From assembly GCA_035506195.1 (NCBI GenBank), contig DATJPV010000048.1, positions 2,011 through 66,010 on the forward strand: a stretch of 64,000 nt of DNA. The letters are read 5' to 3'. Positions 1 through 49,101 of the stretch are shown in pieces (position 1 is the stretch's first letter; the number at the start of each line of letters is the position of its first letter). A program made the translations under genes and the position numbers. The stretch comes from Patescibacteria group bacterium. Its GTDB lineage: Bacteria > Omnitrophota > Gorgyraeia > Gygaellales > Profunditerraquicolaceae. Below the pieces are notes generated by a model, which was not told where the DNA came from, did no database searches, and worked only from the letters and a program-made list of their open reading frames with translations.

Positions 1-519
1 GGCAGGCTTGCTCAGGTCGAAAGTTTATTCACCCGGTCCATTATCCCGGACCCCAAGGGCAGCCGCGCAAACGCGTTGAGCCCTAAGAATGAACGTGCGT
101 ATAGGACGCTTGCGGTAGTATGCGAGGAAATGGGCAAGCCCGAGCTGGCCAAAGAGTATGCGCAGAAGGCCGGCAAGTTAAGGTCATTGTATTGCGATCC
201 TCTCACGGCCAAAAATTACCGCAGGCTCAAAGAGGTTCTGGACAGAAAGGGCATACGCCTGGTATGCGTGCAGTACCCTCTGCGCAGTATCGAGCCGTTC
301 AGGAGGATCTTCGAAGGCGACGGAGAAGGGGTTATTTTCGTGGACAATGAAAAGATCTTCCGCGACGCCGTTAAGAAAGACGGCTATACCGCATATTTCG
401 TAGATATGTTCGGCGGCGACTTCGGCCACTGCACCCCGAGAGGAAACAGGCTTTTGGCTGAAAACATCGCAAACGCCATTTTGAAAGAGGCGTTTCATAT
501 GCAGAAGGCAGTATTTTAA
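1..519 (+). CDS. C-terminal fragment (5' truncated by window edge) of a TPR-split SGNH hydrolase paralog
   Basis: Frame 1 is open from nt 1. The C-terminal ~145 aa are near-identical to the C-termini of the ORFs at 3190-4623, 4665-6089 and 7901-9520 (GIRLVCVQYP...FGGDFGHCT...GNRLLAENIA). DFGH is an SGNH block V D-x-x-H. Confidence 0.6.
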   Translation, partial: GRLAQVESLFTRSIIPDPKGSRANALSPKNERAYRTLAVVCEEMGKPELAKEYAQKAGKLRSLYCDPLTAKNYRRLKEVLDRKGIRLVCVQYPLRSIEPFRRIFEGDGEGVIFVDNEKIFRDAVKKDGYTAYFVDMFGGDFGHCTPRGNRLLAENIANAILKEAFHMQKAVF

Positions 520-522
520 TCT

Positions 523-1566
523 ATGCGCGGCAAAACAAAAACCGTCCTTTTCTCAATACTATTAGCGGGCCTTGCGTCTGCTTTGGCTTTTCTTTTTTCG
601 GAATACGCATACCGCAGCTACTTGCGTTACCGCTACGAGAAAGAAGCGGCAGCCTTCAGCAGCCCTCTTTATATCATTAAGCCGCACACCCTGATCGAGT
701 TTAGCATGAGGCCTAACAGCAGTAGAGAAAACAGGCTGAGCCTCGCGCAGCCAGACAAAAAGTGGAGTTATTCTATTAATGCTGACGGTTTCCGCGGCAG
801 GAATATCGTGCATACAAGAGCAAAGAATAAAAGGATACTGTTCCTGGGGGATTCCTACACGTTCGGCTGGTCTGTGAATGATGACCAGGCATATCCGCAT
901 CAGCTGGAAAACTTACTGCTTCAAAATAACTACGACGCCGAAATTGTCAACCTTGGCGTCCCCGCGTATAACACGGTTCAGGAATATCAGTTATTATGCC
1001 AGAAGTTGGATGTGTACAATCCGGATGTAGTTATTTTGGCATATGTGATGAATGACGCCGAGCCGCAGAACATTGTTCCTCTTGCCCCGGAAATAAAGTA
1101 TCAATGTGCCTCCTCCTGGCTTTTTGAAGACTTTAAATTGCTTCTTTATAAGGTACATTTCCCTTTTCGCAAGACTTTTCTCAGGTCGAATACCTACTGC
1201 ATAGGGCGTAATTATCTTGAAGGATTCGAGCCCGGGAGTCCGAAATGGAAACTCTCGAAGAATGCGTTGAAGGATATCGTGTCTTTTTGCAGGAAAAAGA
1301 ATATTACATTCTTTGTAGCCATCCTGCCGGATGTTACGCAGGATTTCGTCGGGTGCTACCGTTGGCGCCCAATACATCAGGTTGTCTCGAAATGGTGCGA
1401 AGAGTTTGGGGTCGGCTATATAGATCTCTTGCCTTATTTTGCGGGGATTGACCACAAAGATTTCTGGGTTGCCGGAGAAGGGCACCCTAACCCGCACGCG
1501 CATATGAGATTTGCGCAGATTTTGTTTGACTGCATAAGGAGGAACGCCCTTGCCGGCCCTGGATAA
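523..1566 (+). CDS. GDSL/SGNH-family hydrolase with N-terminal TM anchor
   Basis: Block I LFLGDSYTFGW, block II VNLGVPAYNT, block III VMNDAEP and a C-terminal D..GEGHPN are consistent with an SGNH esterase/acyl-hydrolase. There is an N-terminal hydrophobic helix. Confidence 0.65.
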   Translation: MRGKTKTVLFSILLAGLASALAFLFSEYAYRSYLRYRYEKEAAAFSSPLYIIKPHTLIEFSMRPNSSRENRLSLAQPDKKWSYSINADGFRGRNIVHTRAKNKRILFLGDSYTFGWSVNDDQAYPHQLENLLLQNNYDAEIVNLGVPAYNTVQEYQLLCQKLDVYNPDVVILAYVMNDAEPQNIVPLAPEIKYQCASSWLFEDFKLLLYKVHFPFRKTFLRSNTYCIGRNYLEGFEPGSPKWKLSKNALKDIVSFCRKKNITFFVAILPDVTQDFVGCYRWRPIHQVVSKWCEEFGVGYIDLLPYFAGIDHKDFWVAGEGHPNPHAHMRFAQILFDCIRRNALAGPG

Positions 1567-2071
1567 CTCCCTTTTTTATTTCATCAACAATGGTTTAAGC
1601 AACGGTTTTCTGAATACCGTCATGCCGTGGCTCAGCAACATGGGAACCCGGGAATTTCTCATCGTCGCCGGCATTGCCCTGCTTTTCGGCAAAGATAGGA
1701 AATTCAAAATAGCCGGCATCACGTTGATCGTAGGGTTGTTTATCTGCCGCAGCGCCGTGTATTCATTAAAAATGTGGATTGCCAGGCCGCGCCCCTTTCT
1801 CGTCCTTGCACACGTACACGTGCTGGCAAAGGAAATGAGCTTTTCTTTCCCCTCCGGGCACAGCACGAACATCTTCATGGCCGCGGCCCTGCTATCGGCG
1901 TATTCCCGGAAATGCCGCTATTTCTATATACTGGCTTTCGTGGTCGGTATTTCCAGGATCTACCTGGGCGTTCACTACCCTTCGGATGTCCTGGGAGGGG
2001 CATTGTTGGGTATTGCATTAGGAGCAGGCCTGGGATGGATAAGCAGAATTGCGCTAAAACAGGAAAGTTGA
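1550..2071 (+). CDS. PAP2-family phosphatase (undecaprenyl-PP/phosphatidate phosphatase-like)
   Basis: The three PAP2 signature motifs are present: KMWIARPRP, PSGHS and SRIYLGVHYPSD. It is a multi-TM protein. Confidence 0.8.
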   Translation: MPALDNSLFYFINNGLSNGFLNTVMPWLSNMGTREFLIVAGIALLFGKDRKFKIAGITLIVGLFICRSAVYSLKMWIARPRPFLVLAHVHVLAKEMSFSFPSGHSTNIFMAAALLSAYSRKCRYFYILAFVVGISRIYLGVHYPSDVLGGALLGIALGAGLGWISRIALKQES

Positions 2072-2074
2072 TCT

Positions 2075-3190
2075 ATGGAAAGAATAGAGATCACTATCGC
2101 AGGGGCGGGGATTATCGGCCTGGCTGTTGCCTTGGAGCTTTCCCGCAACCATCAGGATATCTTCGTGATAGAGCGGGAATATTCTTTCGGGCAGGGGGTA
2201 AGCTCAAGGAACAGCGAAGTGATCCATGCCGGGATCTATTACCCCAAGGATTCCCTTAAGACGCAAGTATGCGTCGAGGGCAGGCGGATGCTGTATGATT
2301 TTTGCGCAGAGAACCGCATCCCCCACAAAAAAACAGGCAAGCTTATCGTCGCCATCAACGAAACCGAAGCCGGGGACCTGATGGACCTTTTTACGCAAGG
2401 ACAGGCCAACGGCGTAGAGGACCTGCGTTTGCTTTCCAGGGATGAAATAAGAGCGCTAGAACCCCGCGTGCAGGCGCAAGCCGCGATCTATTCTCCTTCC
2501 ACGGGCATCATCGATTCCCACGGCCTGATGAAAAATCTGGCTTCGCAATTCCAGGACAACAAGGGCAACATTACATACAATACAGAAGTCGTGGGGATCG
2601 AAAAAGCCAAAGGCGGTTTCCAGGTTACGGTCAGGGATAAAAGCAAAGAGGCCTTCACATTCTTTACCCGCATTTTTATCAACTCGGCAGGATTATTCTC
2701 GGATAAGATCGCCGTGATGGCCGGCCTGTCGAAGGGTGAATACAAATTGAAATACTGCAAAGGAGACTATTTCCGGGCCCATCCGGCTAAGGCAGGCCTG
2801 ATCAACAGGCTGGTATATCCCGTCCCTAAAAGGAAAGGCGCCGGACTGGGGATACATGCGACGTTGGATCTGGCGGGCGGCCTGCGTTTCGGCCCGGATG
2901 ACGAGTATGTAGAGAAGCTGGATTATAACGTTGACGCATCCAAGTCGAAGGCCTTTCATGAAGCGGTCAGGACGTTCTTGCCTTTCATTGACCGGCAAGA
3001 CCTAAGCCCGGACATGGCAGGTATCCGGCCCAAACTTCAGGGGCCGGGGGAGGGTTTCAGGGATTTTATCATTAAAGACGAAAGCGCCTGCGGCCTTGCC
3101 GGTTTTATAAACCTTATCGGCATCGAGTCCCCGGGGCTTACCGGCGCTTTGTCTATTGCCCGCAAAGTTAAAGGTATGGTCAGGAACTGA
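2075..3190 (+). CDS. lhgO: FAD-dependent oxidoreductase, L-2-hydroxyglutarate oxidase-like
   Basis: It has an N-terminal GAGIIGLAVALEL dinucleotide fold, plus SEVIHAGIYYP and CKGDYFR motifs that match LhgO-family enzymes. Confidence 0.7.
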   Translation: MERIEITIAGAGIIGLAVALELSRNHQDIFVIEREYSFGQGVSSRNSEVIHAGIYYPKDSLKTQVCVEGRRMLYDFCAENRIPHKKTGKLIVAINETEAGDLMDLFTQGQANGVEDLRLLSRDEIRALEPRVQAQAAIYSPSTGIIDSHGLMKNLASQFQDNKGNITYNTEVVGIEKAKGGFQVTVRDKSKEAFTFFTRIFINSAGLFSDKIAVMAGLSKGEYKLKYCKGDYFRAHPAKAGLINRLVYPVPKRKGAGLGIHATLDLAGGLRFGPDDEYVEKLDYNVDASKSKAFHEAVRTFLPFIDRQDLSPDMAGIRPKLQGPGEGFRDFIIKDESACGLAGFINLIGIESPGLTGALSIARKVKGMVRN

Positions 3191-4623
3191 TGCCGCTAAA
3201 GAAAAAGATATCCCTGGTTTTGCTAGGGTCATTTGTGTTTTTTATTTTCCTGGAAGCAGGTTTGCGCTTCGGCGGGTTTGTGTTTGTTTCTTTCCAGGAG
3301 TACCGCAACGCGCGTTCTCTGGCGAAAAAAGGTACGTATCGTATACTCTGCCTGGGGGAATCCACCACCGCCAACCAATACCCGCCTTTCCTTGAGCAGA
3401 TCCTGAACCAGCGCCACACGGGAGTACGCTTCAGCGTCATCGACAAGGGCGTCATCGCCACCGATACCCCGGCTATCCTGCGCCGGTTGAGAGAGAACCT
3501 GGCAGCCTACAAGCCGGATATGGTGGTGGCCATGATGGGGTTTAACGACCGGCGCGTTGCCTACTATGCCGATATACCCGAGGTTCGCATGCCTCTGTTC
3601 CAATATTGCAGAACCTACCGGTTGTTGCGGCTGCTTTACAGCCTCCTGATAAAGAAACGGCATCATGCCCCCCAGCCGCAGGATACTCATGCAGATACCG
3701 CGTTAACGGAGGACACGCGGGAACATAACGAGCTTCTTGCCAGAGAGACGGAATCAAAAAGGACGATCGAGTCAGACCCTCAGAACGAAGAAGCGTATAT
3801 AGAGCTGGGAGGCAGCTATCGCCAGCAGGGTAAATTCTCCCAGGCCGAAGAGTCGCTCAGGAAGGCTATTGAGCTGAATCCTCAAAACGAGCGCGCATAC
3901 GTCGAACTGGGGCGGTTGTATCGCGCCGCAGGCAGGTTCTCCCAAGCCGAGGATTTGTACCAGAAGGCCATCGTGCTAAACCCCAAGAATGAGCGGATCT
4001 ATATTGAGTTAGGATGGCTCTATAGGACTCGAGGCAAGCTTTCCCAGGCAGAAGCCGCGTTCAAAAAGGCCATCGAGGCAAACCCTCGCAACGAGCGCAT
4101 GTATGTCGAGTTGGGATGGAGTTATCGGACCCAGGGCAGGTTCTCTCAGGCGGAGGATTTGCTCAAGCAAGCCGTCGCGCTGAAGCCTCTCAACGATGAT
4201 ACTTATGGCGATCGCGCCTACGGAGCTCTCTCGGTCTTATACGAAGAAACGGGTAAACCGGGACTGGCCAGGGCATATGCCGAAAAGGCGGAAGGGTTGC
4301 GGTCGAAGACGCCCAATGCTCTTACGGCTCAGAGCTACCAGAGACTGAAAGATATTTTGGACACACAGGGCATACGCCTGGTATGCGTACAGTATCCCAT
4401 GCGTAACATAGGGCCGTTGAAGGCGATTTTCCGTAGCGGCCAGGAAGGGGTCGTGTTCGTAGACAACGAGAAGATATTCAGGGATGCCCTCAAGAAAGAC
4501 GGATACAACGCATATTTTAGAGACGCATTCGGCGGCGACTTCGGCCACTGCACCGATAAGGGTAATAAGCTCCTGGCGGAAAATATCGCCAACGCCATTC
4601 TTAAAAAGGTATTTCATAAATAG
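3190..4623 (+). CDS. TM-anchored SGNH hydrolase with a 5xTPR array inserted between catalytic blocks III and V (paralog A)
   Basis: There is an N-terminal TM helix. Block I is CLGESTT, block II DKGVIATDT and block III MMGFNDR. Then come ~5 TPR units (AYxELGxxYRxQGKFSQAE), then block V GGDFGHCT. The ATG overlaps the lhgO stop. Confidence 0.6.
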   Translation: MPLKKKISLVLLGSFVFFIFLEAGLRFGGFVFVSFQEYRNARSLAKKGTYRILCLGESTTANQYPPFLEQILNQRHTGVRFSVIDKGVIATDTPAILRRLRENLAAYKPDMVVAMMGFNDRRVAYYADIPEVRMPLFQYCRTYRLLRLLYSLLIKKRHHAPQPQDTHADTALTEDTREHNELLARETESKRTIESDPQNEEAYIELGGSYRQQGKFSQAEESLRKAIELNPQNERAYVELGRLYRAAGRFSQAEDLYQKAIVLNPKNERIYIELGWLYRTRGKLSQAEAAFKKAIEANPRNERMYVELGWSYRTQGRFSQAEDLLKQAVALKPLNDDTYGDRAYGALSVLYEETGKPGLARAYAEKAEGLRSKTPNALTAQSYQRLKDILDTQGIRLVCVQYPMRNIGPLKAIFRSGQEGVVFVDNEKIFRDALKKDGYNAYFRDAFGGDFGHCTDKGNKLLAENIANAILKKVFHK

Positions 4624-4664
4624 AGCGCCTATCATTTCGCAGGGGGCATGGTATAATTTAACAA

Positions 4665-6089
4665 ATGAAACCGCTCAGAACGGAAATATCTCTGCTCATA
4701 TTCGGGCTGTTCTTGTTCCTTCTGCTCCTTGAGGCGGCCTTGCGCCTGGCCGGCTTTGCCTTTTGGTCTTTACAGGAATACAGGAACCTGCAGTCTATGC
4801 GGCAGAAGGGGACCCGGCGTATCATGTGTGTAGGAGAATCTACTACCGCAGGCCAGTACCCTCCTTTTCTGGAAGAAATACTTAATCAGCGCAGCGGCAT
4901 AAAGTTCAGCGTAATCGATAAAGGCGTAGTCGGCACGACAACGTCGGTCATATTGGCTGAATTGGAAGCAAACCTCGATCGCTACCGTCCCGATATGGTA
5001 GTTGCCATGATGGGGATAAACGACTGGGGGCCGCATATCCCTTATGAAGCGGCTACCGCTTCAAAGGCCGCGCTTTTCTTCAGGTCTTTGCGTACGTACA
5101 AGTTGGCCAGGCTCCTGTGGCTGCACATCGTGACTAAAACCAGAGAGGCCGCCGGAACGCCTTCGTATATCGCGCAGGGAATGTGCTATCGCAGCCAGGG
5201 GAAATTTGCTCAGGCCGAAGAGGCCTTCAGGAAGGCCTTGGAAGCGGATCCTAAAAACCGCGATGCGTATCTTATACTCGGGCACCTGTACCGGGAACAA
5301 AGCAAGTTCTCTCAATCGGAAGAGGCCTTCAAGAAGGTCATCGCGCTGAACTATCAGGACGACGGTTTATATATCGGGTTGGGATGGACCTATGAGGGCC
5401 AGGGCAGTTTTGCTCAGGCCGAAGAGGCCTTCAGGAAGGCCATCGAGTTAAACCCCCAAAACGAGGGCGCATACATCGGGCTGGGATGGAGCTATCGCCA
5501 GCAGGGTAAATTCTCCCGGGCGGAGGATGCCTTCAAAAAGGCCGTCGAGTTGAGTCCCAAAAACGACGGCGCGTATGTTGAACTAGGGCTGTCTTATCGA
5601 GCCGAAGGAAAGATTTCCCAGGCCGAAGGCTCGTACAGAAAGGCTATCGAGCTGAACTCTTACAACGACCGCGCGTACGCAGCGCTGGCGGTGGTCTATG
5701 AAGAGACAGGCAGGCCCGCGTTGGCAAAGGAATACGCCAAGAAGGCGGAAGAATTACGATATGCGTATTATGATCCCCGCACGGCGGCCAACTACCGCAA
5801 GCTCAAGGAGATCCTGGATAAAAGAGGCATACGATTTGTATGCGCCCAGTACCCCATGCGCAGCATCGGGCCGCTGAGAAGGATATTCAAGGACCAGGAA
5901 GGCACCATATTCTTTGTGGACAACGAAAAAATATTCAGGGATGCGGTTAAGAAAGACGGCTACAATGCCTATTTCGTAGATATGCTTGGCGGCGATTTCG
6001 GCCATTGCACCCCTAAGGGCAACAGGCTCTTGGCTGAAAATATCGCCGATGCCGTCATGCAAGGCTCATGCGTACATAAAACGCCTTAA
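4665..6089 (+). CDS. TM-anchored SGNH hydrolase with internal TPR array (paralog B)
   Basis: It has the same architecture and near-identical motifs (CVGESTT, MMGINDW, GGDFGHCT) and 5-6 TPR units. Confidence 0.6.
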   Translation: MKPLRTEISLLIFGLFLFLLLLEAALRLAGFAFWSLQEYRNLQSMRQKGTRRIMCVGESTTAGQYPPFLEEILNQRSGIKFSVIDKGVVGTTTSVILAELEANLDRYRPDMVVAMMGINDWGPHIPYEAATASKAALFFRSLRTYKLARLLWLHIVTKTREAAGTPSYIAQGMCYRSQGKFAQAEEAFRKALEADPKNRDAYLILGHLYREQSKFSQSEEAFKKVIALNYQDDGLYIGLGWTYEGQGSFAQAEEAFRKAIELNPQNEGAYIGLGWSYRQQGKFSRAEDAFKKAVELSPKNDGAYVELGLSYRAEGKISQAEGSYRKAIELNSYNDRAYAALAVVYEETGRPALAKEYAKKAEELRYAYYDPRTAANYRKLKEILDKRGIRFVCAQYPMRSIGPLRRIFKDQEGTIFFVDNEKIFRDAVKKDGYNAYFVDMLGGDFGHCTPKGNRLLAENIADAVMQGSCVHKTP

Positions 6090-6102
6090 GCCGAACTTCC
6101 TT

Positions 6103-7035
6103 ATGAAGACAAAATTCCATCAGAGATATCCTCGCTATCTGCCTTTTTATTATATCGTCTTTTTGATCTTGCGAAAGATCATCCGGCAGCGTGCGTTGCG
6201 GCGCTTGGAGGCAAGGACCGCCAAGAGCCCTCTTGCCGGGGAATGCGAGGATGGGCCGGGCCATTGGGCCCGGGAAGATAAACCAAAGAACCCTGTCGGC
6301 GCCATAAATAAAGCCGCATTCTGGATCGACGATGATTTTAAGGAGCCGGCGATCAGGGAGTGTATAGATAACATTGCCGCCTTGAGGGCATCGTTGAATG
6401 CAAGGCGCCTGCGTTATTGCAGCCCGGCCGGGACATTCATTCCGGGAACCTATCTGCCACGCACGTCAAAAACAAAAATGTGGGAAAATGCCTGGGCTAT
6501 CCGTCATCTGGGCGTCAGCCCGACCGATGCAGTGCTTGACCTGGGGGGCGCCTCAACCCTTTTTAGCTTTTATTTAGCCGGTATGGGATGCAGCGTGCGC
6601 GTGATCGATAATGATTGGGGAAACTGCGGGACGATCTATAATACGAATTACGTAGGCAAGAAAATGCATTGGGATATCAGGGCCTACGATCATGACCTGG
6701 CCAGGCCCCTGCCTTTTAAAGACGCTTCTTTCGATGCGGTATTCTCCATATGCGTTTTTGAACATCTTTTCTGCGGGACGAGGCGGCAGGTAATGCGGGA
6801 GATCGGACGGGTGCTCAAACCCGCGGGGAGGCTCGCCCTGACGTTTGATTATGACCCTCCCCGCGCCTGCGGGTTATCCGACAAGGGTTTGCGTTTTGCC
6901 TACAGGGATAAGATCGAGCGCGATATCATTCAGCCTTCCGGCCTAGAGGTCATGGGCAACCAGCAGTGGCTCGACGCCTTTCCTGAGAAGCCATTCTTGG
7001 GAGCGCTGTTTCTCAAAAAGAGGCCCGCGGCATGA
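6103..7035 (+). CDS. class I SAM-dependent methyltransferase
   Basis: Motif I is VLDLGGASTLFSFYLAGMGCSVRVID, and post-motif II/III are AVFSICVFEHL and LKPAGRLALT. The start is placed at the ATG at 6103, after the paralog B stop. The track ORF 5986-7035 extends upstream through the overlap and is not supported. Confidence 0.7.
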   Translation: MKTKFHQRYPRYLPFYYIVFLILRKIIRQRALRRLEARTAKSPLAGECEDGPGHWAREDKPKNPVGAINKAAFWIDDDFKEPAIRECIDNIAALRASLNARRLRYCSPAGTFIPGTYLPRTSKTKMWENAWAIRHLGVSPTDAVLDLGGASTLFSFYLAGMGCSVRVIDNDWGNCGTIYNTNYVGKKMHWDIRAYDHDLARPLPFKDASFDAVFSICVFEHLFCGTRRQVMREIGRVLKPAGRLALTFDYDPPRACGLSDKGLRFAYRDKIERDIIQPSGLEVMGNQQWLDAFPEKPFLGALFLKKRPAA

Positions 7036-7904
7036 ATAATAAAGAGCTGCCGTTTGCTTCGGTTATTATCTGTACACAGAACAGGAAAGAATACCTCCAG
7101 AATTACTCTCTGCGCACCGCCCTGGAATTGGCATATCCCCGTTACGAGGTGATCGTTGTCGTTGACGGCTCGCAGGATAGCACCGATGATTTTCTTGCTT
7201 CTCTCCAGGGCCGGACAGCTAACCTTAAGGTTGTGCGTCACCCTATTCCCAGAGGGGTAGCGTACGCAAGGCAGGCAGGGGTCCAGCGGGCAGCGGGCCA
7301 GATCATCGCGTTTACCGATGACGACTGTATGTTGGAAAAAAACTGGTTAAAGGAACTGGTGCTTATGTATCTGGAAGATAACGAGCTGATGGCCGCCGGA
7401 GGCCTTACGTATGAGGCGGATACGGATAAGCCCTGCTCATCGCCCGAAGACATATTCGGTTTTAATATGTCTTTTCGCAGGGCCGTTTTCGACAGGTTTT
7501 CCTTTGACGCCAATTTATTTTTCCACAGGGCCCCTATGCACGAAGAGACGGATCTTATCGCAAGGATGCGGCATCACGGCTATAAGACAGGGTATACGAG
7601 AAAGGCGATAGTAAGGCATTTCCCCGCTTCCGCATCATACCGCAGGATCAACAAAAGGATCGGCGATCACCTGAACTGGATTTACATGAAAGCAAAGGCA
7701 ACGTCTTTGCCGCGTTACTACTGCGCGTTTTTCAAGAGATCCCGCCAGATGTATTCCAAGATCAAGGACCTGCATCGGGACGGGGTTATTTCTTTTCTGG
7801 ATACATGGCGCAAGTTAGCTTGGGTTAATTACGTGTTGCTTTTTGAGCTGCCCGTTAAGGCAAAGATTGCCCACAGGCAAGAAGAAAAAAAGCTCAAGAC
7901 ATGA
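7032..7904 (+). CDS. glycosyltransferase family 2
   Basis: It has a GT-A fold N-terminus (ASVIICTQNRKEYL, VIVVVDGSQDST) and a DxD-like TDDDC motif. Start and stop overlap the neighbouring genes. Confidence 0.75.
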   Translation: MNNKELPFASVIICTQNRKEYLQNYSLRTALELAYPRYEVIVVVDGSQDSTDDFLASLQGRTANLKVVRHPIPRGVAYARQAGVQRAAGQIIAFTDDDCMLEKNWLKELVLMYLEDNELMAAGGLTYEADTDKPCSSPEDIFGFNMSFRRAVFDRFSFDANLFFHRAPMHEETDLIARMRHHGYKTGYTRKAIVRHFPASASYRRINKRIGDHLNWIYMKAKATSLPRYYCAFFKRSRQMYSKIKDLHRDGVISFLDTWRKLAWVNYVLLFELPVKAKIAHRQEEKKLKT

Positions 7905-9520
7905 CGCCGCTGAAAACGAAAATATCACTGATCCTGTTCGGATTCTTGGTGTTTGTCCTTCTTCTTGAGGCAGCCTTGCGCCTGGCAGGGTTTACCTTAT
8001 TGTCTATTCAGGAGCACCGTAACCTGCAATCCCTCAAACATAAGGGATCCTACCGCATCGTGTGTTTGGGCGAGTCTACCACTGTAGGCCAGTATCCGTC
8101 CCTGCTCGAAGAGATCCTCAACCGGCGCAACATCGGCATGCGGTTCAGTGTCATTGACAAGGGGGTAGTGGGCACTACGACCGACGCTATCATGTCTAGG
8201 CTCCTGCCGAACCTTGCCGCTTATACCCCGGATATGGTAATTGCGATGATGGGGGTTAATGATCGGCAGTTGATGTGCTATAAAGGCATTTCTGCTGTAT
8301 ACACAAGGCTATTCTTGCGTTCAAGGGTTTTCCGCCTCATGTTTTTTGTGTATGAGCGTGTTTCCGAAAAAATAAAGGAAGTCGCGGAATCCGGCCGTGG
8401 TTTTAACTATGGCCAGCTGGAGCTATCCGGCCTGCAACAGAGCCCCTTGCCGTATGACGCAGACCCTCAGCCTCAAGATGTCGATACCTGCCTTCGTTTA
8501 GCGCAGGCCTTTTTAAGCCGGGGCAACTTCTCCAGGGCCGAAGGCGCCTTCAGGAAAGCCATAGAGCTTGAATCGCAAAGCGGGCGTGCGCACCGTCAAT
8601 TCGAGCGGTTCCGTCAGAACTATCCGCGCATTGAGGATACGCTCAAGAAAGCCATCACAGCACATCCGCAGGAGGAGGCTGCGTATATAGAACTGGAGTG
8701 GTTGTATGGTAAGCCGGCAGGCCTGGCCCGGGCCGAAGATACGTTTAAAAAACTTATCGCGCTAAACCCCCGAAACGAACACGCCTATATTATGTTAGGT
8801 TCACTGTATGGGAAAGCGCACCAGCTCTCTGGGGCCCAAGAGTTGTTGGAAAAGGCCGTTGCGCTGGCGCCTCAAAACGAGCGCGCATATGTTCCGCTGG
8901 GGCGGAACTACCGAACCCAGGGCAAGTTTGCTTTGGCCGAGGAGGCATTTCAAAAGGCCATCGCACTGAAACCCCAAAACGAGCGCGCATATACGGAGTT
9001 GGGGTGGAGCTACCAGGCCCAGGGCAAGTTCTCGCAAGCCGAGGAGGCATTTCAAAAGGCCGTCGCGCTGAACCCTCAAGACGAGCGTCCGTATGAAGCG
9101 CTCTCGAAAGTATACGAAAATATAAACAAGCCGGAGTTAGGAAGAGCGTATGCTGAAAAAGCGGCTAACTTGAGGGCAAGAAGATTCGAAGCCGGTACCA
9201 TTCAGAACTACCGGAGGCTTAAGGATATCTTAAGCAAAAAGGGTATACGCCTGGTTTGCGTCCAGTATCCCCTGCGTCCCGTGGGGGCATTACAAGAAAT
9301 ATTCCAGGGCCGCGCAGAAGGGATCGTTTTTGTAGATAATGAGCGGATATTTAAAGACGCCGTTGAAAAAGACGGCTATGATGTGTATTTCGATGATACG
9401 TTCGCAGGCGATTTCGGCCACTGCACCGCTAAGGGCAACCGGCTTTTAGCTGAAAATATCGCCGATACGATCGTGCGTCGGGTATTTACTCCTGATCATG
9501 CATCCCATGCCGCGTTTTAA
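7901..9520 (+). CDS. TM-anchored SGNH hydrolase with internal TPR array (paralog C, longer TPR insert)
   Basis: It has CLGESTT, MMGVNDR, ~7 TPR units and AGDFGHCT. Confidence 0.6.
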   Translation: MTPLKTKISLILFGFLVFVLLLEAALRLAGFTLLSIQEHRNLQSLKHKGSYRIVCLGESTTVGQYPSLLEEILNRRNIGMRFSVIDKGVVGTTTDAIMSRLLPNLAAYTPDMVIAMMGVNDRQLMCYKGISAVYTRLFLRSRVFRLMFFVYERVSEKIKEVAESGRGFNYGQLELSGLQQSPLPYDADPQPQDVDTCLRLAQAFLSRGNFSRAEGAFRKAIELESQSGRAHRQFERFRQNYPRIEDTLKKAITAHPQEEAAYIELEWLYGKPAGLARAEDTFKKLIALNPRNEHAYIMLGSLYGKAHQLSGAQELLEKAVALAPQNERAYVPLGRNYRTQGKFALAEEAFQKAIALKPQNERAYTELGWSYQAQGKFSQAEEAFQKAVALNPQDERPYEALSKVYENINKPELGRAYAEKAANLRARRFEAGTIQNYRRLKDILSKKGIRLVCVQYPLRPVGALQEIFQGRAEGIVFVDNERIFKDAVEKDGYDVYFDDTFAGDFGHCTAKGNRLLAENIADTIVRRVFTPDHASHAAF

Positions 9521-11234
9521 GAATATTCTAAGCGTCAGCATCTTTGTGTTTCTGGTGCTACTTACCTGTGCGGCCAGTTATGTGTGGCTGGCGCGCGATA
9601 ATACCCCTCCGTACGGAATCACCCCTCCTTTGCAAAGCATGCGCTTTTACCTGGCCTGGCAAGATCATGGTTTCAGGTTCTCCGATTTCGCCGCGGTTTT
9701 TGAACCGCAATACCCTCCGTTGACGCACCTTCTGTACACCGGGTACTTTCTTATCTGGGGGCTGCACACCGGCAAAGAGATGCTTGTCAATACCCTGTTT
9801 CTGGTTATCGCTCTCATCGCGCTCTATGGATTGGCCAGGGCCTTGTATGGCGAGCTTGTTGCGGTCGCAGCGGTGGCGCTCTTTTTGTCTTTCCCCGGCA
9901 CGCTTGCCTATTCCCGGCGCGGCTTCACTGAATTTGCCGTTATGGGCATGGTAACTTTAAGCATCTGGCTGCTTGTGAGAACCGAATATTTTTCGCGTCG
10001 CGCATACGCGGTGCTTTTTGGGCTGGCTTTGGGCCTGACCGCACTGACCAAATGGAGTTTCCTTCCGTTTGTCGCCGGGCCGCTGCTGGTGGTTTCCGGA
10101 TACGGATGCCTGCGCAAAGATCCTTCCCGGGCGAAACGGTACTTTCTTCTGTCTATCCTCATCGCGCTTGCCCTAAGCCTGCCATGGTACATTCCTCATA
10201 TGCGGGATGCGTGGATGCGTTTCCATATCGATAAACTCGACGCCTCACCCAGGGATTTCCTATTCACCAAAGCAAACCTTGCGGCATTCCTGCATAACTG
10301 CCGGTCTTATTTTCGGGAAAGCATTGCGGTGCCCTCGGTAAAAGCGCACATGGACCTCAATTACCTGCTTATCTTCCTGTGCGCCGGATCTTGGCGCCTT
10401 GCGTACCGCTGTTTCCATCGGGCAGGCCGCGCTGCCGTTTCCCCTGGGGCATTGGTACTTTTTTTATGGATATCCGTACCTTTCGTTACGCTCTGCCTGC
10501 CCGTTTTTACGGGAATACGCCATCCTTCGCACCTGCTGGCTGTCCTGCCCGCCTGTGCGCTTGCCTTAAGCGTTACGCTCTTACGTATCCGGCCCGCCAG
10601 CGCCAGGATTCTATTTCTTTGCGCTACCGCCGCCGTTGCATTACCCTACTGGTACATTAATCTCTGTGCGCCTTTCCTGCGGCAGCCTGCGCAAAAGAGC
10701 CTGCCCTTACAGATAGAGACGTCTTTTTCGCTGCGCCATCCGTTGTCCAGCAGGCTTCGGCTGGCAAGAGTCCTCCTTACGGACCTCCAGAGGGTTTCCC
10801 TGTTGCCTAGCCAGGAAAACTGGCGGCATAAGGACATACTGGATTTTATAGTCGAGGATCGCGCCAAAGACGCGCGCAAAGAAAAACCCGCGGTATTGCT
10901 GGTAGGGACCTCTCAGTTGTTTCGCTATCGCCAATTTGAGTATTGCAATCTGCGGATGCACGATAAGGTCATGCTTGTCGATGCCTTCCATACCCGCCTT
11001 GAGTTTTACGCGAATCTAGCCGCTTTGCATGACGCTATCTTTGACTCTCCCTTTGATTATATTGTGGTAAGGGACGGGGTGCGCTTAAATCCTCTCACGA
11101 GGGAAGCCTTTGCCCAGCAAGCCACGCTTGCCGTCCTGGAGCGCCGGCAAGAAGAGTTCCGCCGCCTCTATGTAGCGGCGATGCAGTTTGGCCTTCCGGA
11201 CGGAAGCCGGGCAATAGTCTACAGGAGGCTTTAG
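9498..11234 (+). CDS. GT-C-fold membrane glycosyltransferase, ArnT/PMT (GT39/GT83)-like
   Basis: It has ~10-12 predicted TM helices. The N-terminal region (YTGYFLIWGL...LTKWSFLPF) resembles 4-amino-arabinose/mannosyl transferase family proteins. There is a soluble C-terminal domain. Confidence 0.5.
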   Translation: MHPMPRFKNILSVSIFVFLVLLTCAASYVWLARDNTPPYGITPPLQSMRFYLAWQDHGFRFSDFAAVFEPQYPPLTHLLYTGYFLIWGLHTGKEMLVNTLFLVIALIALYGLARALYGELVAVAAVALFLSFPGTLAYSRRGFTEFAVMGMVTLSIWLLVRTEYFSRRAYAVLFGLALGLTALTKWSFLPFVAGPLLVVSGYGCLRKDPSRAKRYFLLSILIALALSLPWYIPHMRDAWMRFHIDKLDASPRDFLFTKANLAAFLHNCRSYFRESIAVPSVKAHMDLNYLLIFLCAGSWRLAYRCFHRAGRAAVSPGALVLFLWISVPFVTLCLPVFTGIRHPSHLLAVLPACALALSVTLLRIRPASARILFLCATAAVALPYWYINLCAPFLRQPAQKSLPLQIETSFSLRHPLSSRLRLARVLLTDLQRVSLLPSQENWRHKDILDFIVEDRAKDARKEKPAVLLVGTSQLFRYRQFEYCNLRMHDKVMLVDAFHTRLEFYANLAALHDAIFDSPFDYIVVRDGVRLNPLTREAFAQQATLAVLERRQEEFRRLYVAAMQFGLPDGSRAIVYRRL

Positions 11235-11324
11235 GCGCCCGTAATAAAATGTATTGCGCAAGGTCGTATTTAGACTATACTTGAACAAAGAGAAAGGTTT
11301 TAGCAAGGGATCAGGAAGGGCTCC

Positions 11325-12365
11325 GTGCAAATGAAAAGGTATGCATATCTGTTGGTGTTCTGCGCGCTGGCCTTGGCGGTATTCATCTTGGCGCCTCATC
11401 ATAAAAGACCGCGCAATATTATTCTTATAGGATGGGATGCCGCCTCGCGGGGCACTGTCCGAAGCCTCCTGGCGCAGGGCAGGCTCCCCAACCTTAAGGC
11501 ATTGGTCTCCCGGGGGGCATTAGTCGATATCGACGCGCAGAGAAGGACGGATACCGCAGCCGGCTGGGCGGAGATATTAACCGGCTATCCGCCCGAAGAT
11601 ACCGGTGTCTGTTGCAATGCGCATTATCAGGCGATACCTCAGGGATACACCGTTTTTGAGCGCCTGAAAGATTTTTTCGGGAAAGAGAATTTTGTGACCC
11701 TGGCGGCCATCAGCAAAAAACACCACATGGATTGCACTCCTGCGCAGAAATATGACAGGATGGAGGATGTGCCGCAAGAACACCAGGGTGTCGTAAGGCC
11801 TGACGGCCGGGGCGTATATTTTCCCGGCGCGCCGTTTGCCAATGCGAAGGGCACAATGGATGTGTTCGCCAATGACCTGCGCAGTAATGACAGAGTACTG
11901 AAGGTAGCGCTGAAGCTGTTGGAGCAGTATCGTAACAAGCCGTTCTTTTTCTTTATACATTTCGGCGATATCGATGGTGCGGGGCATCAGTACGGAGGCA
12001 TCTCTCCGCAGGTAAACGACGCGATTATTTCATGCGATACTTGCTTGGGTGCGTTAATGCAGAAATTAAAAGAATATGGGATATACGACAAGACGCTGCT
12101 GTATATCACCGCCGACCATGGGCTTGATAAGGATGTAGTCTGTCCCGGGCATCACAACGCCGCCCTTATTTTCCTGGCAACCAATAATGCACGGGTCATC
12201 CGGCGCGGCACCAGGATCGACATTACCCCTACCATACTCGATGATTTCGGCATAGACCTAGGAAAGATCAGGCCGGAACTTCCAGGCAGGGCCTTGACCA
12301 ATTTGAAGCGATGCAGGTATTGCATAAGGGTGCATGAGGGCTCCGGCGGCGAGGAAGGGCAATAG
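11325..12365 (+). CDS. alkaline-phosphatase-superfamily enzyme, type I phosphodiesterase/nucleotide pyrophosphatase (PF01663)-like, membrane anchored
   Basis: It has an N-terminal TM and the metal-ligand motifs GWDAASRGT (Asp + Ser/Thr nucleophile region), FGDIDGAGHQYG (D..GH.YG) and TADHGLD. Confidence 0.65.
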   Translation: MQMKRYAYLLVFCALALAVFILAPHHKRPRNIILIGWDAASRGTVRSLLAQGRLPNLKALVSRGALVDIDAQRRTDTAAGWAEILTGYPPEDTGVCCNAHYQAIPQGYTVFERLKDFFGKENFVTLAAISKKHHMDCTPAQKYDRMEDVPQEHQGVVRPDGRGVYFPGAPFANAKGTMDVFANDLRSNDRVLKVALKLLEQYRNKPFFFFIHFGDIDGAGHQYGGISPQVNDAIISCDTCLGALMQKLKEYGIYDKTLLYITADHGLDKDVVCPGHHNAALIFLATNNARVIRRGTRIDITPTILDDFGIDLGKIRPELPGRALTNLKRCRYCIRVHEGSGGEEGQ

Positions 12366-13974
12366 CGTGGATGTCTTTTTGGCGGCCATATGCCTGGTTA
12401 TGCTGGTTCTCATCGGATCAAGAGAGGGCTGGGGGAAGGTATTAAAGATTACAGCTGCCTGGTTCCTGTTTTCGGTCGGTATGATGGAGATCTTCCTGCT
12501 TTCCGGCCACCAAAGGCACTTCCGTATTTGGCTCCCCAGTTATTTCAGCGTGTTCGGCCCTCTGCAATGGTGCGCCTGGGGCATCGGGCTTATTACTTAT
12601 TATGTAATAGGGGCAAAGACCAGGATAGCCTGCTGGATCAGGAGGCTCGCCTTGCTGTTGCTTGTGTGCATACCCATCCCCGTAATTTTCTTGTTCATCT
12701 TTCGGTTTGGGGTAAATGTGCTATATTGGGACCAGTGGCGGATAGTCCCTATCCTGGCGAGGTATCTTAACGGCACCCTGCAGTTCTCCCACCTTTTTGA
12801 AGGCATTGTTGAGCAGCGCGAATTTTTTGGCACGGTGATCACGCTTGTCACGGCCCGCCTGACTCACTACAATACCTGCGTTGAGATGTATGTGAATGCG
12901 TGCATATTATTGTTGTCATTCTGCGTAGTCTTGGCGTCTCTCAAAGAGCGCGCTCCCCTTGTTGGGAACCTGTTTTTTCTTGCGCCGATCTCCTATTTGA
13001 TGCTGGGCCCGAATCAAATCGCCAATATTTTGTATGGGGCCGGGCTTAGCTGGGTTTTGGTCCATACCTGCGCCATCGCCAGCCTCTATTTTCTTTATTC
13101 GGCCACGAAGCAGCCCGCCAGGCGCAAGGCGACCTGTACCCTCATCGTAGCCATGCTCTTGGCTACCGTCGCCACCTTTTCCTTGTCGATGGGCATGTGC
13201 GTATGGTTTGCGGGGTGTTTTTTAGCAGGCCGCCGGCCTCGGCCCGTCATCGGTAGCTGGGCGGCCCTGGGCTTGTTGGAATCGCTGTTCTATTTTCATA
13301 CCCCGGCGTTCCTTGCGCAGATGCTCGCAAAACCGCTTGCCGGCGCAGCCTCCCTGCCCGCCGCCAACCACGTTGGCTACCTAAGTTTTTTCCCTTTATT
13401 CCTTGGTTCTGCGGTAACCGGAAGATTCAATTCTTTGGCTTGGGGCATCTCGTTGTTGTCATTGTCGGCCGTTTGTCTGGCCTTGCTATATGCATATGGC
13501 CAATGGAGGCAGAACGCGCTGTGGTTAAGTATCCTGCTATTCGCGACCTGCGCAACCCTGTTGATCTTTGTAGGAAGGGTTTGCGCAAGGGCAGACCTGG
13601 CGGAAGGGCTTGCGCACAGGTATAAGATCTTTGCAATCCTTATCGTTGCCTCGCTGTATATGCTGATGTTGAATTTGCGCTTCGCCGTGAGGGGCAATTT
13701 TGTCGTTACCGGCTCATACGCCGTGCTTACCTGCCTGATCGTTATCGGCGCTCCCGTTTCTTTTTTCAATAACCTTGCCTATGCGCAAGTACAAAAAAGC
13801 CTTTACCAAAAAGCCGCGTCTGTGCTGGTTGACTACGAGGTTCAATCAGACGATGTCTTGCAGGCCCTTTACAAAGAACCGCAGTTTGTCAGAAAGAACG
13901 CGGCAGTGCTCAAGAAACTCAAATATAACGTTTTCAGCGTGCAACCGCAAAACATGCCGAAAGGAGCCCCATGA
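12334..13974 (+). CDS. polytopic integral membrane protein (>=12 TM), unknown function
   Basis: It has a long run of hydrophobic helices and no soluble catalytic motif that I recognise. It is bracketed by two NPP-family paralogs. Confidence 0.4.
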   Translation: MRAPAARKGNSVDVFLAAICLVMLVLIGSREGWGKVLKITAAWFLFSVGMMEIFLLSGHQRHFRIWLPSYFSVFGPLQWCAWGIGLITYYVIGAKTRIACWIRRLALLLLVCIPIPVIFLFIFRFGVNVLYWDQWRIVPILARYLNGTLQFSHLFEGIVEQREFFGTVITLVTARLTHYNTCVEMYVNACILLLSFCVVLASLKERAPLVGNLFFLAPISYLMLGPNQIANILYGAGLSWVLVHTCAIASLYFLYSATKQPARRKATCTLIVAMLLATVATFSLSMGMCVWFAGCFLAGRRPRPVIGSWAALGLLESLFYFHTPAFLAQMLAKPLAGAASLPAANHVGYLSFFPLFLGSAVTGRFNSLAWGISLLSLSAVCLALLYAYGQWRQNALWLSILLFATCATLLIFVGRVCARADLAEGLAHRYKIFAILIVASLYMLMLNLRFAVRGNFVVTGSYAVLTCLIVIGAPVSFFNNLAYAQVQKSLYQKAASVLVDYEVQSDDVLQALYKEPQFVRKNAAVLKKLKYNVFSVQPQNMPKGAP

Positions 13975-15011
13975 TGAAACGTACATATGTGTATATACTG
14001 GCTGTCTGCGTATCGATCGCTGCGGCATGCGCCTTGGCGGTTACGTGTGTTACCGCGGGTATCGGCAAGAGGCCGCGCAGCATCATTCTTGTGGGCTGGG
14101 ACGCTGCCTCCCGGGACACCGTCCAGGGGCTCATGGCTCAAGGCAGGCTTCCGAACCTTGCGGCGCTGGTTTCCGGCGGCGCGTTCGTCGATATCGATGT
14201 CCAGAGAATAACCGATACTAAAGCCGGCTGGACGGAGATATTGACCGGCTATCCTCCGGAGATAACGGGTACGCACGACAATCACATGTATCAGCAGATA
14301 CCGCAGGGGTATACCGTTTTCGAGCGCCTGCAGGATTTTTTCGGGAAAGGCAATTTCATTACCGTAGCAGTGATCAGTAAGAAGCTCCACATGGATTGCT
14401 TTCCTCCGCAGAGATATGACAGGATCGAGGATGTGCCGGAAGATTATCAAAGCACCGTCAGGACCGAGCTTAATCCGGATGGCCAGGGATGCGTATATTT
14501 TCCCGGCGAGCCGTTCGCCGGCATAAAAGACAAGATAGACGTATTTGTGAATGACCTGCGTTCCAATAGTAACACCCTGCAGGAGGCGTTGCGGCTCCTT
14601 GAGAAGTACCGCCAGAAGCCGTTTTTCTTCTTCGTGCATTTTGGCGATATCGACGGCGCCGGGCACAAATTTGGAGTAAACGCCCCGCAGGTGGCTAATG
14701 CGGTTATCTCATGCGACGCCTGTTTAGGCGCCCTGGTGCAGAAGCTGAAGGAATACAAGATATACGATACGACGAGGATCTATGTCACTGCCGATCACGG
14801 GCTTGATACAATAGGCAATAGCCATCGCGACGCGCCTTTTATTTTTCTGGCGACCAATAATCGCAAGGTTATACGGGACGGCAGGAGGATAGATATCGCC
14901 CCTACCATACTTGAAGATTTCGGCGTAGACTTAAGCAAGATCAAGCCGGCGCTTCCCGGCTGGTCTTTGACCAAGATCAAAAGGTGCAAATATTGCGTAA
15001 GAAAGCGGTAA
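13971..15011 (+). CDS. alkaline-phosphatase-superfamily enzyme (NPP/PF01663-like), paralog of 11325-12365
   Basis: It aligns colinearly with the upstream paralog (VGWDAASRDT, FGDIDGAGHKFG, TADHGLD). It has an N-terminal TM. Confidence 0.65.
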   Translation: MMKRTYVYILAVCVSIAAACALAVTCVTAGIGKRPRSIILVGWDAASRDTVQGLMAQGRLPNLAALVSGGAFVDIDVQRITDTKAGWTEILTGYPPEITGTHDNHMYQQIPQGYTVFERLQDFFGKGNFITVAVISKKLHMDCFPPQRYDRIEDVPEDYQSTVRTELNPDGQGCVYFPGEPFAGIKDKIDVFVNDLRSNSNTLQEALRLLEKYRQKPFFFFVHFGDIDGAGHKFGVNAPQVANAVISCDACLGALVQKLKEYKIYDTTRIYVTADHGLDTIGNSHRDAPFIFLATNNRKVIRDGRRIDIAPTILEDFGVDLSKIKPALPGWSLTKIKRCKYCVRKR

Positions 15012-15820
15012 GAATAATAACCGGCAGCTACGGCTGCCTGTGCGCATTGTTGCTGGTGGCCGGCTGTGCGGGATTGCCCAGCATAAGGGTACCGCAGAAG
15101 GCATACGATGCCGCTATCCCCATACCGGACGCGCGCCTGCCGGATTACGAAAAACTGACCTATGAAATCAGGTGGCTCGGCCTGCGCGTGGGCACGCTTA
15201 CTGCCTCCATAGTCGAAAGGAAACAGTTCCGGGACAGGGAAGTATATGTCCTTGAGGCCACCGTGAAGACAAGCGCGTTCTTTTCGAGCATCTACAAGAT
15301 AGAGGACCGTTTTGTTTCCTATGTGGACGCGCAAAAGTTGTATACCATACGGCACGAGGTATACCGCAGGGACGGCGCATACAAAAAGGACGCCGTCACC
15401 GAGTTCGACCAGGAAAGCCATAAGGCCCATTTCAAGAATTCCCTGGATATGTCGGAGAAAACCTTTGATATACCCGCGGGGGTCCACGATATCTTGAGCG
15501 CCTGTTATTATTTCATGCTTTTGCCGCTGAAGGTAGGGGATAAGATCGAGTATTCCGTATGCAATAACGAGACCAATTACCAGTTCCTCGGCCTTATCCA
15601 GCCTAAGGTATTGATACGGGTGCCTGCTTTGGGCAGGAAGGAGAGCGAGGCGTTTCTCATTCAGCCTTACGCCAAGCTTAAAGGGGAGAAGGTGGATAAA
15701 GGCAACGTAAGCGCGTATTTCAGCTGCGAAAAAAGAAGGCTGCCCTTATTGGCTACCGTGAAGGGCCCGGTATTCACGGAGGTTACTATCGTGCTTTCCA
15801 AGATAGAGAACCGGCAGTGA
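14984..15820 (+). CDS. putative lipoprotein (possibly DUF3108-like)
   Basis: There is a lipobox LLVAGCAG after a signal peptide and no enzymatic motifs. The DUF3108 resemblance is only suggested by an N-terminal YEIRWLGLRVG motif. Confidence 0.4.
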   Translation: MQILRKKAVRIITGSYGCLCALLLVAGCAGLPSIRVPQKAYDAAIPIPDARLPDYEKLTYEIRWLGLRVGTLTASIVERKQFRDREVYVLEATVKTSAFFSSIYKIEDRFVSYVDAQKLYTIRHEVYRRDGAYKKDAVTEFDQESHKAHFKNSLDMSEKTFDIPAGVHDILSACYYFMLLPLKVGDKIEYSVCNNETNYQFLGLIQPKVLIRVPALGRKESEAFLIQPYAKLKGEKVDKGNVSAYFSCEKRRLPLLATVKGPVFTEVTIVLSKIENRQ

Positions 15821-17346: not shown

Positions 17347-17898
17347 ATGCAGGATATCCCCAGAGATATTTTGATCCGGGCATCCCGGGGCAACATCGAA
17401 GCCTTCGAACATATATACAAGGCTGTTTCGGGATTTGTGTACAATGTGGCCCTGAGGATAACCAACAGCAGCCATGATGCCGAGGAGGTCACCCAGGACG
17501 TGTTCATGAAGGTGTACCGGAGCCTTCCCGGATTCCAGTTCCGCTCTTCTCTGCGGACGTGGATATACCGGATCACCGTTAATACCGCGCTCAACAGTTG
17601 TAAGAAGGCGATTAAGGAAACAAGCCGGCGCGGCGATTACGATACGGCGGTCAGGACCCAGAGCGCCCCTGAAACCGCAGATGCGCGCGCTACGCAGGCC
17701 GACCATGAGAGGGCCGTTGCGTCGCTGTTAAGCGCGCTTAACCCGGACCAGCGCGCCTGCGTCGTATTAAGGGAGATCGAAGGGTTTAGCTACAAACAGA
17801 TATCCGAGGCTTTAAAGATCAATATCAATACCGTTCGCTCAAGGCTTAAGAGGGCCAGGGAAACCCTCCTGGCTTCAAGGAAAAGCGAGGTAGGCTAA
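17347..17898 (+). CDS. ECF-type RNA polymerase sigma-70 factor
   Basis: Region 2 is VTQDVFMKVYRSLPGFQ...RTWIYRITVNTALN and region 4 HTH is QISEALKININTVRSRLKRARE. Confidence 0.85.
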   Translation: MQDIPRDILIRASRGNIEAFEHIYKAVSGFVYNVALRITNSSHDAEEVTQDVFMKVYRSLPGFQFRSSLRTWIYRITVNTALNSCKKAIKETSRRGDYDTAVRTQSAPETADARATQADHERAVASLLSALNPDQRACVVLREIEGFSYKQISEALKININTVRSRLKRARETLLASRKSEVG

Positions 17899-17899
17899 G

Positions 17900-21645: not shown

Positions 21646-21740
21646 CCCCTTAGCTGGCCCGCATCTTTCCGGCATTACATCCTTACAAGTTTGGATTGAC
21701 TTATCCCGCCGCAAATAGTATTATGGGGTATGAAAAGGAG

Positions 21741-22472: not shown

Positions 22473-22480
22473 ACTGCGCA

Positions 22481-49040: not shown

Positions 49041-49063
49041 CGTTCCTGCGCGTAAAAAAGTAA

Positions 49064-49091: not shown

Positions 49092-49101
49092 GGAGAATAC
49101 T

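Follow-up and report, generated by a model that had tools for sequence, protein, structure and literature searches.

Membrane-anchored, SGNH-like proteins of the AlgJ, DltD and PatB type are encoded beside an MBOAT or AT3 acyl donor and carry no insert of tetratricopeptide repeats (TPRs). A domain nested within an SGNH fold does have a precedent in Ape1, where a CBM35 is located between SGNH residues 87 and 228 (bioRxiv 10.1101/2021.09.23.461501; review PMC9487903). TviD, the Vi-antigen O-acetyltransferase, combines SGNH and a C-terminal TPR domain in one protein and binds TviE through the latter (PMC8760489), and in the AlgK-AlgX complex the SGNH-like AlgX works bound to a periplasmic TPR scaffold (PMC9734138). 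Here, we analysed a stretch of 64,000 nucleotides (nt) of a metagenome-assembled genome (NCBI assembly GCA_035506195.1, contig DATJPV010000048.1, positions 2,011 to 66,010 of the forward strand; the window), which carries tandem genes for membrane-anchored proteins with both SGNH motifs and TPRs. In the structural models of these proteins, SGNH blocks I to III and a C-terminal module form one SGNH fold, which is split by a TPR insert. A first-pass annotation of the window, made from the sequence alone, had proposed this architecture; it had also held that SGNH enzymes and TPR scaffolds normally act as separate proteins, a generalisation that is too strong in view of TviD, in which both are fused (PMC8760489).

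The window contains four open reading frames (ORFs) of this type, all on the + strand and at the coordinates first assigned to them (1-519, 3190-4623, 4665-6089 and 7901-9520). The translation of the first comprises the C-terminal 172 codons of a gene truncated by the window start. The whole gene is present in the ENA contig k141_1671009 (L080), where it occupies positions 943-2529, encodes 528 amino acids (aa) and has its start 1,068 nt before the window. Window position 1 corresponds to position 2011 of that contig, of which 2,010 nt precede the window, and the two sequences are 99.9% identical over the first ~9 kb and 99.4% over the next 7 kb. A fifth, partial paralog is found at the contig start (L080 2-946), upstream of the full paralog 1. 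Thus, the locus has at least five copies, and the original count of four tandem paralogs is correct for the window but was set by its edge. The three complete paralogs of the window (477, 474 and 539 aa) are colinear, with full-length identities of 54-62%, and are divided as follows.

1-519, + strand: C-terminal part of paralog 1, with the last TPR unit and the C half of the SGNH fold (block V at 415-435)
3190-4623, + strand: paralog 2, 477 aa, transmembrane (TM) segment at ~aa 8-34
3337-3555 (aa 50-122), + strand: paralog 2, N half, with Ser58, Gly87 and Asn119
3556-4314 (aa 123-375), + strand: paralog 2, insert
4315-4620 (aa 376-477), + strand: paralog 2, C half, with Asp450 and His453
4665-6089, + strand: paralog 3, 474 aa, the copy chosen for AlphaFold2 modelling
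4686-4769 (aa 8-35), + strand: paralog 3, predicted TM anchor, from hydropathy, positive-inside analysis, invariant columns and the model helix 4-46
4815-5030 (aa 51-122), + strand: paralog 3, N half, with β1-β3, block I Ser59, block II Gly87 and block III Asn119 and Asp120
5031-5771 (aa 123-369), + strand: paralog 3, insert, with linker 125-142, helix 143-162 and six TPR pairs at 168-367
5772-6086 (aa 370-474), + strand: paralog 3, C half, with helix 371-386, β4 390-394 and β5 415-418, ending in block V (Asp444-x-x-His447) and the C-terminal helix 450-467
7901-9520, + strand: paralog 4, 539 aa in the window and 572 aa in the ENA contig
8051-8269, + strand: paralog 4, N half
8270-9187, + strand: paralog 4, insert
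9188-9517, + strand: paralog 4, C half, with Asp504 and His507

All SGNH blocks named in the first-pass annotation (I, II, III and V) were found as described. In the three complete paralogs, block I reads CLGESTT, CVGESTT and CLGESTT and block III reads MMGFND(R), MMGIND(W) and MMGVND(R); block II of the paralogs is IDKG, and the block V sequence GDFGHCT is present in all four window copies. The defining features of the SGNH superfamily can be recognised in this set: the nucleophilic Ser of block I lies at the end of β1, with PF13472 aligned from model position 1, the oxyanion hole is provided by Gly87 of block II and Asn119 of block III, and the D-x-x-H of block V is close to the C-terminus. 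Across 60 homologues, Ser59, Gly87, Asn119, Asp120 and His447 (paralog 3 numbering) are invariant and Asp444 is kept in at least 90%. This invariance of catalytic residues, together with the fold models described below, leads us to predict that the paralogs are most likely active enzymes.

Sequence profiles recover only the first half of the fold. PF13472 (Lipase_GDSL_2) covers model positions 1 to ~88 of 178, at residues ~54-141 of the paralogs, and the C-terminal ~100 aa have no match of their own in Pfam or NCBIfam. PF25182 (NonGDSL; 20-33 bits against a gathering cut-off of 80) and PF04311 (DUF459; 15-26 bits against 27.2) align with the N-terminal third to half of their models only. When the family profile was compared by hhalign with an un-split SGNH hydrolase encoded in the same window (523-1566), only blocks I-III were aligned (probability 95.6%), so that the homology of block V is beyond the reach of sequence profiles and structural evidence was needed. 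A profile search of the whole-family alignment against PDB sequences was swamped by TPR proteins and gave no information on the catalytic core.

An AlphaFold2 model of paralog 3 (4665-6086) was therefore built from a 60-sequence alignment, with a predicted local distance difference test score (pLDDT) of 86.3 and a predicted template modelling score (pTM) of 0.75. In this model a single long helix (aa 4-46) leads to β1 (51-57), β2 (81-85) and β3 (111-115). The insert then consists of a linker modelled with low confidence (125-142), one helix (143-162) and six TPR helix pairs (168-367), after which the chain continues with a helix (371-386), β4 (390-394), β5 (415-418) and a C-terminal helix (450-467). 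Thus, β1-β3 precede the insert and β4-β5 come after it, and together they build a three-layer alpha/beta/alpha fold with five parallel strands, as in other SGNH proteins. As the N half provides only ~75 residues, the structural matches to SGNH enzymes require the C module to complete the same fold. The best structural matches of the family are mostly CE3 / acetyl-xylan short-chain carbohydrate esterases and peptidoglycan O-acetyl enzymes, and TesA-type lysophospholipases also occur among the hits.

A natural homologue without TPRs supports the same conclusion. P0185 (304 aa) is 53% identical to the query over 97% of its length once the TPRs have been deleted from the query, and has a short linker between its N and C modules. 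A model of P0185 (pLDDT 79.5) matches SGNH/GDSL structures only, the top 50 Foldseek hits all being SGNH. Furthermore, PF00657 aligns weakly (E ~1e-3) but end to end (positions 1-207 of 208) with P0185 and with P0155, and this alignment puts the D-x-x-H at the block V of the model. The half-match of PF13472, the paralog 3 model and the TPR-less homologue together bear out the proposal that the TPR array is nested within the SGNH fold, while the possibility that the C module folds independently, raised by the first-pass annotation as a challenge to its own proposal, is contradicted by the models of both paralog 3 and P0185.

The N-terminal TM helix suggested previously is also supported. Over 277 family members, a hydrophobic span at ~aa 8-35 has a mean Kyte-Doolittle value of 2.5 in the best 19-residue window, and it falls within the AlphaFold2 helix at aa 4-46; its length exceeds, in our judgement, that of a cleaved signal peptide. 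Within it, Glu23 and Gly30 are invariant in the family and Arg27 nearly so, with Glu23 and Arg27 spaced i, i+4, a pattern that hints at docking onto another membrane protein. Averaged over the 277 members, the N flank carries a net charge of +4.0 and the flank after the TM segment one of +1.75; because the N flank is the more positive, an N-in/C-out topology with the catalytic domain in the periplasm is favoured. Cys55, Cys393 and Cys448 are conserved in the family and were considered as possible periplasmic disulfides; in the general SGNH topology, Cys55 and Cys393 are expected on non-adjacent strands. We also considered helix 143-162 as an in-plane amphipathic membrane anchor and dropped this idea, as its hydrophobic moment is only 0.2-0.37.

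Between block III and block V, Pfam TPR models match 3-6 stretches per protein and the paralog 3 model has six helix pairs, in agreement with the array first described; the tandem 34-residue helix-turn-helix units form a solenoid, and a 102-nt periodicity is visible in the DNA of the paralog 3 insert. The N and C modules hold fixed positions relative to the protein ends across the family, and the ends of the insert, namely helix 143-162 and the last TPR unit, are likewise kept. The middle of the insert varies by units of 33-34 residues, from none to roughly twelve units, and in 240 sequences the β4 motif lies between 102 and 508 aa after block III. Among the four full-length paralogs, identity is 64% in the N half, 32% in the linker after block III, 48% in the TPR array and 65% in the C module. 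The TPR region, previously called the most divergent part, therefore does diverge beyond the catalytic halves, but it is surpassed by the short linker. Paralog 4 has one additional, near-identical TPR unit of 33 aa (99 nt) in the ENA contig compared with the window (window ~8873-9087; L080 10860-11196), in assemblies that are otherwise 99.4-99.9% identical. This change in repeat number looks recent and could be either a real polymorphism or an assembly collapse.

The duplications themselves are old, since the DNA identity of the C module between copies is low (66-74%) and closer relatives are found outside the genome. Indeed, for the N and C modules of nearly every paralog, many closer relatives exist in other metagenome contigs than in the same genome. 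Paralog 1 is 75% (N module) and 87% (C module) identical to P0055; the values for the other paralogs of its genome are ~61% and 71-77%, and these siblings are placed 20th to ~170th among its matches. The one near-exception is the C module of paralog 3, for which paralog 1 ranks second. On these grounds a recent duplication was rejected, and the earlier inference that the amplification was recent or that gene conversion is ongoing is not supported.

That inference had been drawn from a shared 24-mer, GGCGGCGACTTCGGCCACTGCACC, which is indeed identical at two sites, 412-435 and 4531-4554, the first having been given as 414; versions with 2-3 mismatches occur at 5988 and 9404, and none would be expected by chance (100 shuffles). 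Overall, two identical tracts of 27-28 nt connect paralogs that otherwise are 61-77% identical in DNA, one between paralogs 2 and 1 (4527-4553 and 408-434) and one between paralogs 2 and 3 (3814-3841 and 5490-5517). One of the two joins TPR units at differing positions of the array. Under a crude model in which codons are chosen independently, P for the block V tract is ~0.001 per pair, and the identical 24-27-mer sits in the most constrained motif. Short gene-conversion tracts between paralogs are possible, but the shared sequence does not testify to a recent amplification.

The family is large. Among clusters at 50% identity, a search with the C module alone retrieved 2,408 representatives at E <= 1e-3, 1,832 of them at E <= 1e-10. 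Nearly all of the 150 matches listed map to the C-terminal end of the protein or close to it. At least 462 loci were found in species-representative genomes. All 77 loci listed come from metagenome-assembled genomes (MAGs) or single-amplified genomes, 50 of them labelled Omnitrophota and the remainder mostly 'uncultured Planctomycetales/Planctomycetia' or Elusimicrobia. Tandem copies are typical, with two or more at 27 of 79 loci; in the MAG fen_1321, contig PLLJ01000017.1 (L030) carries seven SGNH-TPR genes head to tail within 16 kb, and at least 12 copies are distributed over four contigs of this genome (also L035, L047 and L075). No family relatives were found in the viral contigs of IMG/VR, and a phage origin was set aside.

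The view that this is not a described family was upheld: there is no dedicated Pfam or NCBIfam model, members are labelled 'tetratricopeptide repeat protein' in databases, and we found no paper in the literature describing the family. The NCBI label of the source MAG, 'Patescibacteria group bacterium', is doubtful, as the window encodes OmpA-LysM (48814-50064) and LolCE-like MacB_PCD/FtsX (54817-56013) proteins and the family is mostly found in Omnitrophota. These OmpA-like and LolCE-like genes further along the window indicate a diderm cell.

The paralogs are interspersed with the following genes.

523-1566, + strand: un-split SGNH/GDSL hydrolase of a separate SGNH family, 347 aa, with an N-terminal TM anchor
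1550-2071, + strand: PAP2 lipid-phosphate phosphatase (Pfam)
2075-3190, + strand: FAD-dependent oxidoreductase of the DAO family (Pfam)
6103-7035, + strand: S-adenosylmethionine (SAM)-dependent methyltransferase, 310 aa by the ENA gene call
7032-7904, + strand: GT2 glycosyltransferase (Pfam)
9498-11234, + strand: PMT_2 / ArnT-like GT-C membrane glycosyltransferase

The un-split hydrolase matches PF13472 at positions 1-176 of 178 (E 4e-15), with a weak match to the NCBIfam LA_2486 family (Leptospira). When the neighbouring proteins of the window were compared by tblastn with 79 related loci (E 1e-8), this second SGNH protein was the only one with relatives, which were found in 11 of them. The longest ORF of the methyltransferase begins at 5986 and overlaps the end of paralog 3 by ~100 nt, and 6103 is probably the true start. 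Beyond the glycosyltransferase at 9498-11234, two TM-anchored AlkP-type enzymes flank a 546-aa ORF (12334-13974) that lacks a Pfam match and has 10 or more TM segments, followed by a DUF3108 protein. Taken together, the genes at 1550-2071, 6103-7904 and 9498-15820 resemble a kit for remodelling lipid A or envelope glycolipids. PAP2, GT-C and anchored AlkP-type enzymes act on the periplasmic side. In the ORFs scanned, there were no alginate, Pel or poly-N-acetylglucosamine (PNAG) synthase genes, and no porin or MBOAT.

Further along, the window encodes an ECF sigma factor with a zf-HC2 anti-sigma partner (17347-18391), a 258-aa ORF with an HNH endonuclease domain at its end (21696-22472), a 683-aa ORF without a Pfam match and with a single TM segment (22445-24496), and a 782-aa protein (24518-26866) with at least five TM segments in its unannotated N part and at least nine C-terminal TPRs, which is another pairing of TPRs with a membrane domain. 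At related loci, we took a census of Pfam families in 141 neighbouring ORFs from 66 loci and counted 17 radical SAM, 6 SPASM, 5 carbamoyltransferase and 4 PMT_2 ORFs; sulfatase, sulfotransferases and methyltransferases were also seen at individual loci. This context fits variable islands that tailor envelope glycoconjugates and does not pinpoint a specific substrate.

We believe that these proteins are probably periplasm-facing, membrane-anchored SGNH esterases or acyltransferases that act on an envelope glycoconjugate, and that their TPR arrays serve as adaptors. Our models and alignments establish the fold and the conserved catalytic residues, and the topology has support; the part played by the TPRs and the class of substrate are inferred. 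Each paralog would be a single-pass N-in/C-out protein with the SGNH serine esterase or acyltransferase domain on the periplasmic side. The strands β1-β3 bear Ser59 (G-E-S-T-T) as the nucleophile and Gly87 and Asn119 of the oxyanion hole, and ~250 residues on, β4, β5 and the Asp444-x-x-His447 loop complete the catalytic fold. As block III carries the oxyanion-hole Asn, the TPR superhelix leaves the fold beside the active site, in the loop just past block III, and re-enters it at the helix before β4. The array probably binds a partner protein or a substrate polymer and keeps it near the active site, and, being more divergent, might differ in partner or substrate from one paralog to the next. 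The chemistry would be O-deacylation or O-acyl transfer on an envelope glycoconjugate such as lipopolysaccharide or lipid A, or a lipid-linked or exported glycan. In favour of this reading we count the PAP2, GT2, ArnT-like GT-C, two anchored AlkP-type and methyltransferase genes of the window, the genes seen at related loci, the diderm markers, and the precedents of AlgK-AlgX and of the TviE-binding TPR domain of TviD.

Several observations weigh against it. No operon partner is conserved: even radical SAM, the most frequent neighbour, makes up only 17 of 141 ORFs. No MBOAT or AT3 was seen among the 25 commonest neighbour families or in the scanned window ORFs; a partner may lie elsewhere in the genome. 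Many neighbours at other loci are cytoplasmic enzymes, which is compatible with an enzyme facing the cytoplasm, and the positive-inside signal is statistical and not decisive. Furthermore, the structural neighbours include both esterases and transferases, which does not settle the type of reaction.

It is also conceivable, and in our opinion unlikely, that the paralogs are membrane-proximal lipases or deacylases acting on the acyl chains of lipid A, lipoproteins or phospholipids and not on O-acyl groups of glycans, with the TPR array regulating or localising the enzyme. Membership of the GDSL 'lipase' superfamily and a TM anchor at the membrane would suit such an activity, as would the TesA-type lysophospholipases among the structural matches and the resemblance of the window genes to a lipid A remodelling kit (PAP2, GT2, ArnT-like GT-C, two AlkP-type enzymes and a methyltransferase). 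However, the best structural matches are mostly carbohydrate esterases and peptidoglycan O-acetyl enzymes, a ranking that is itself a weak guide to substrate, and the context in other genomes is mixed and not specific to lipid A.

Still less likely is a cytoplasm-facing O-acyltransferase similar to TviD, tethered to the inner face of the membrane, which would use an acyl-CoA donor to modify a nascent glycan while the TPR docks a glycosyltransferase or polymerase. The neighbours at related loci, mostly cytoplasmic tailoring enzymes (radical SAM, sulfotransferase/APS kinase, carbamoyltransferase and methyltransferase), are in line with this possibility, and a TPR protein with a TM anchor is able to face the cytoplasm, as in the case of LapB. 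In contrast, the charge bias of +4.0 against +1.75 over 277 members favours N-in/C-out, and the PAP2, GT-C and anchored AlkP-type neighbours in the window are enzymes generally known to act periplasmically. TviD itself offers the closest parallel, being an SGNH-family O-acetyltransferase that uses its TPR domain for membrane association and TviE binding, but it has a Cys nucleophile, no typical blocks II and III, a terminal TPR and no TM segment (PMC8760489), whereas the SGNH-TPR family has the canonical Ser and blocks I, II, III and V.

Finally, we give hardly any credence to a non-catalytic TPR scaffold with a degenerate SGNH remnant, or with an independent C-terminal module unrelated to block V: profiles detect only the first half of the SGNH model and databases say 'tetratricopeptide repeat protein', but the catalytic and oxyanion-hole residues are invariant or nearly so, the two halves make one SGNH fold in the models and the TPR-less homologue is a plain SGNH domain.

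Returning to the envelope esterase or acyltransferase that we favour, one could speculate, with a good deal of doubt, that the nested TPR array is a fast-evolving specificity module of variable length and that the tandem arrays constitute a diversified, programmable set of surface-remodelling enzymes. The difference of one unit between assemblies that are 99.4-99.9% identical would suggest that TPR units are gained and lost on population time scales. If this were true, the TPR of each copy would steer it towards its own partner or glycoconjugate, of the envelope or of a host or prey, and the set would amount to more than housekeeping enzymes.

On a practical matter, the label 'tetratricopeptide repeat protein' hides the conserved catalytic centre of a large enzyme family that has been neither named nor characterised. 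The natural series from no to about twelve TPR units, including a TPR-less member, should be handy for testing whether an adaptor controls the choice of substrate, and the copy number and tandem arrays in Omnitrophota point to a heavy investment in acyl modification of the envelope or surface. The family does not represent a new kind of biological system, no new principle is demonstrated by it, and no long-standing question hinges on it. It does provide a second, different example of a domain nested in the SGNH fold, here a repeat solenoid past block III.

How the family relates to known systems can be stated for each of them. Generic GDSL-2/CE3 esterases (PDB 3rjt, 2vpt, 1yzf, 7ddy and TesA 1ivn) are soluble, contiguous proteins of ~180-220 aa with neither a TM segment nor an insert. 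Unlike for AlgJ/AlgX, PatB and DltD, neither the scanned window ORFs nor the 25 commonest families of neighbours include an MBOAT or AT3. The AlgX-AlgK, PelA-PelB and PgaB-PgaA pairs share with it the association of a polysaccharide-modifying enzyme with a periplasmic TPR scaffold, which in functional terms is the pairing drawn on by the first-pass annotation, but there the two are separate proteins and the TPR partner is either a lipoprotein or part of a fusion with an outer-membrane porin. TviD shares the joining of an SGNH-family acyl enzyme and a TPR array in one polypeptide; its TPR follows a complete SGNH domain, it has a Cys nucleophile and atypical blocks II/III, and it is cytoplasmic without a TM segment, so that the nested TPR, Ser and TM anchor set the SGNH-TPR family apart from the published description of TviD. 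The SGNH review (PMC9487903) makes no mention of TPR. With Ape1 and CE2-type esterases the likeness is limited to the principle of a domain nested in the SGNH fold. In Ape1, an O-acetyl-peptidoglycan esterase of Neisseria and Campylobacter, a beta-sandwich CBM35 of fixed size follows block I in a protein with a cleaved signal peptide, whereas in the SGNH-TPR family an all-helical, repeat-expandable TPR array follows block III in a protein with a TM anchor. In an arrangement that we did not find described, the family combines known themes: a TM anchor and an expandable TPR solenoid nested past block III of the SGNH fold.

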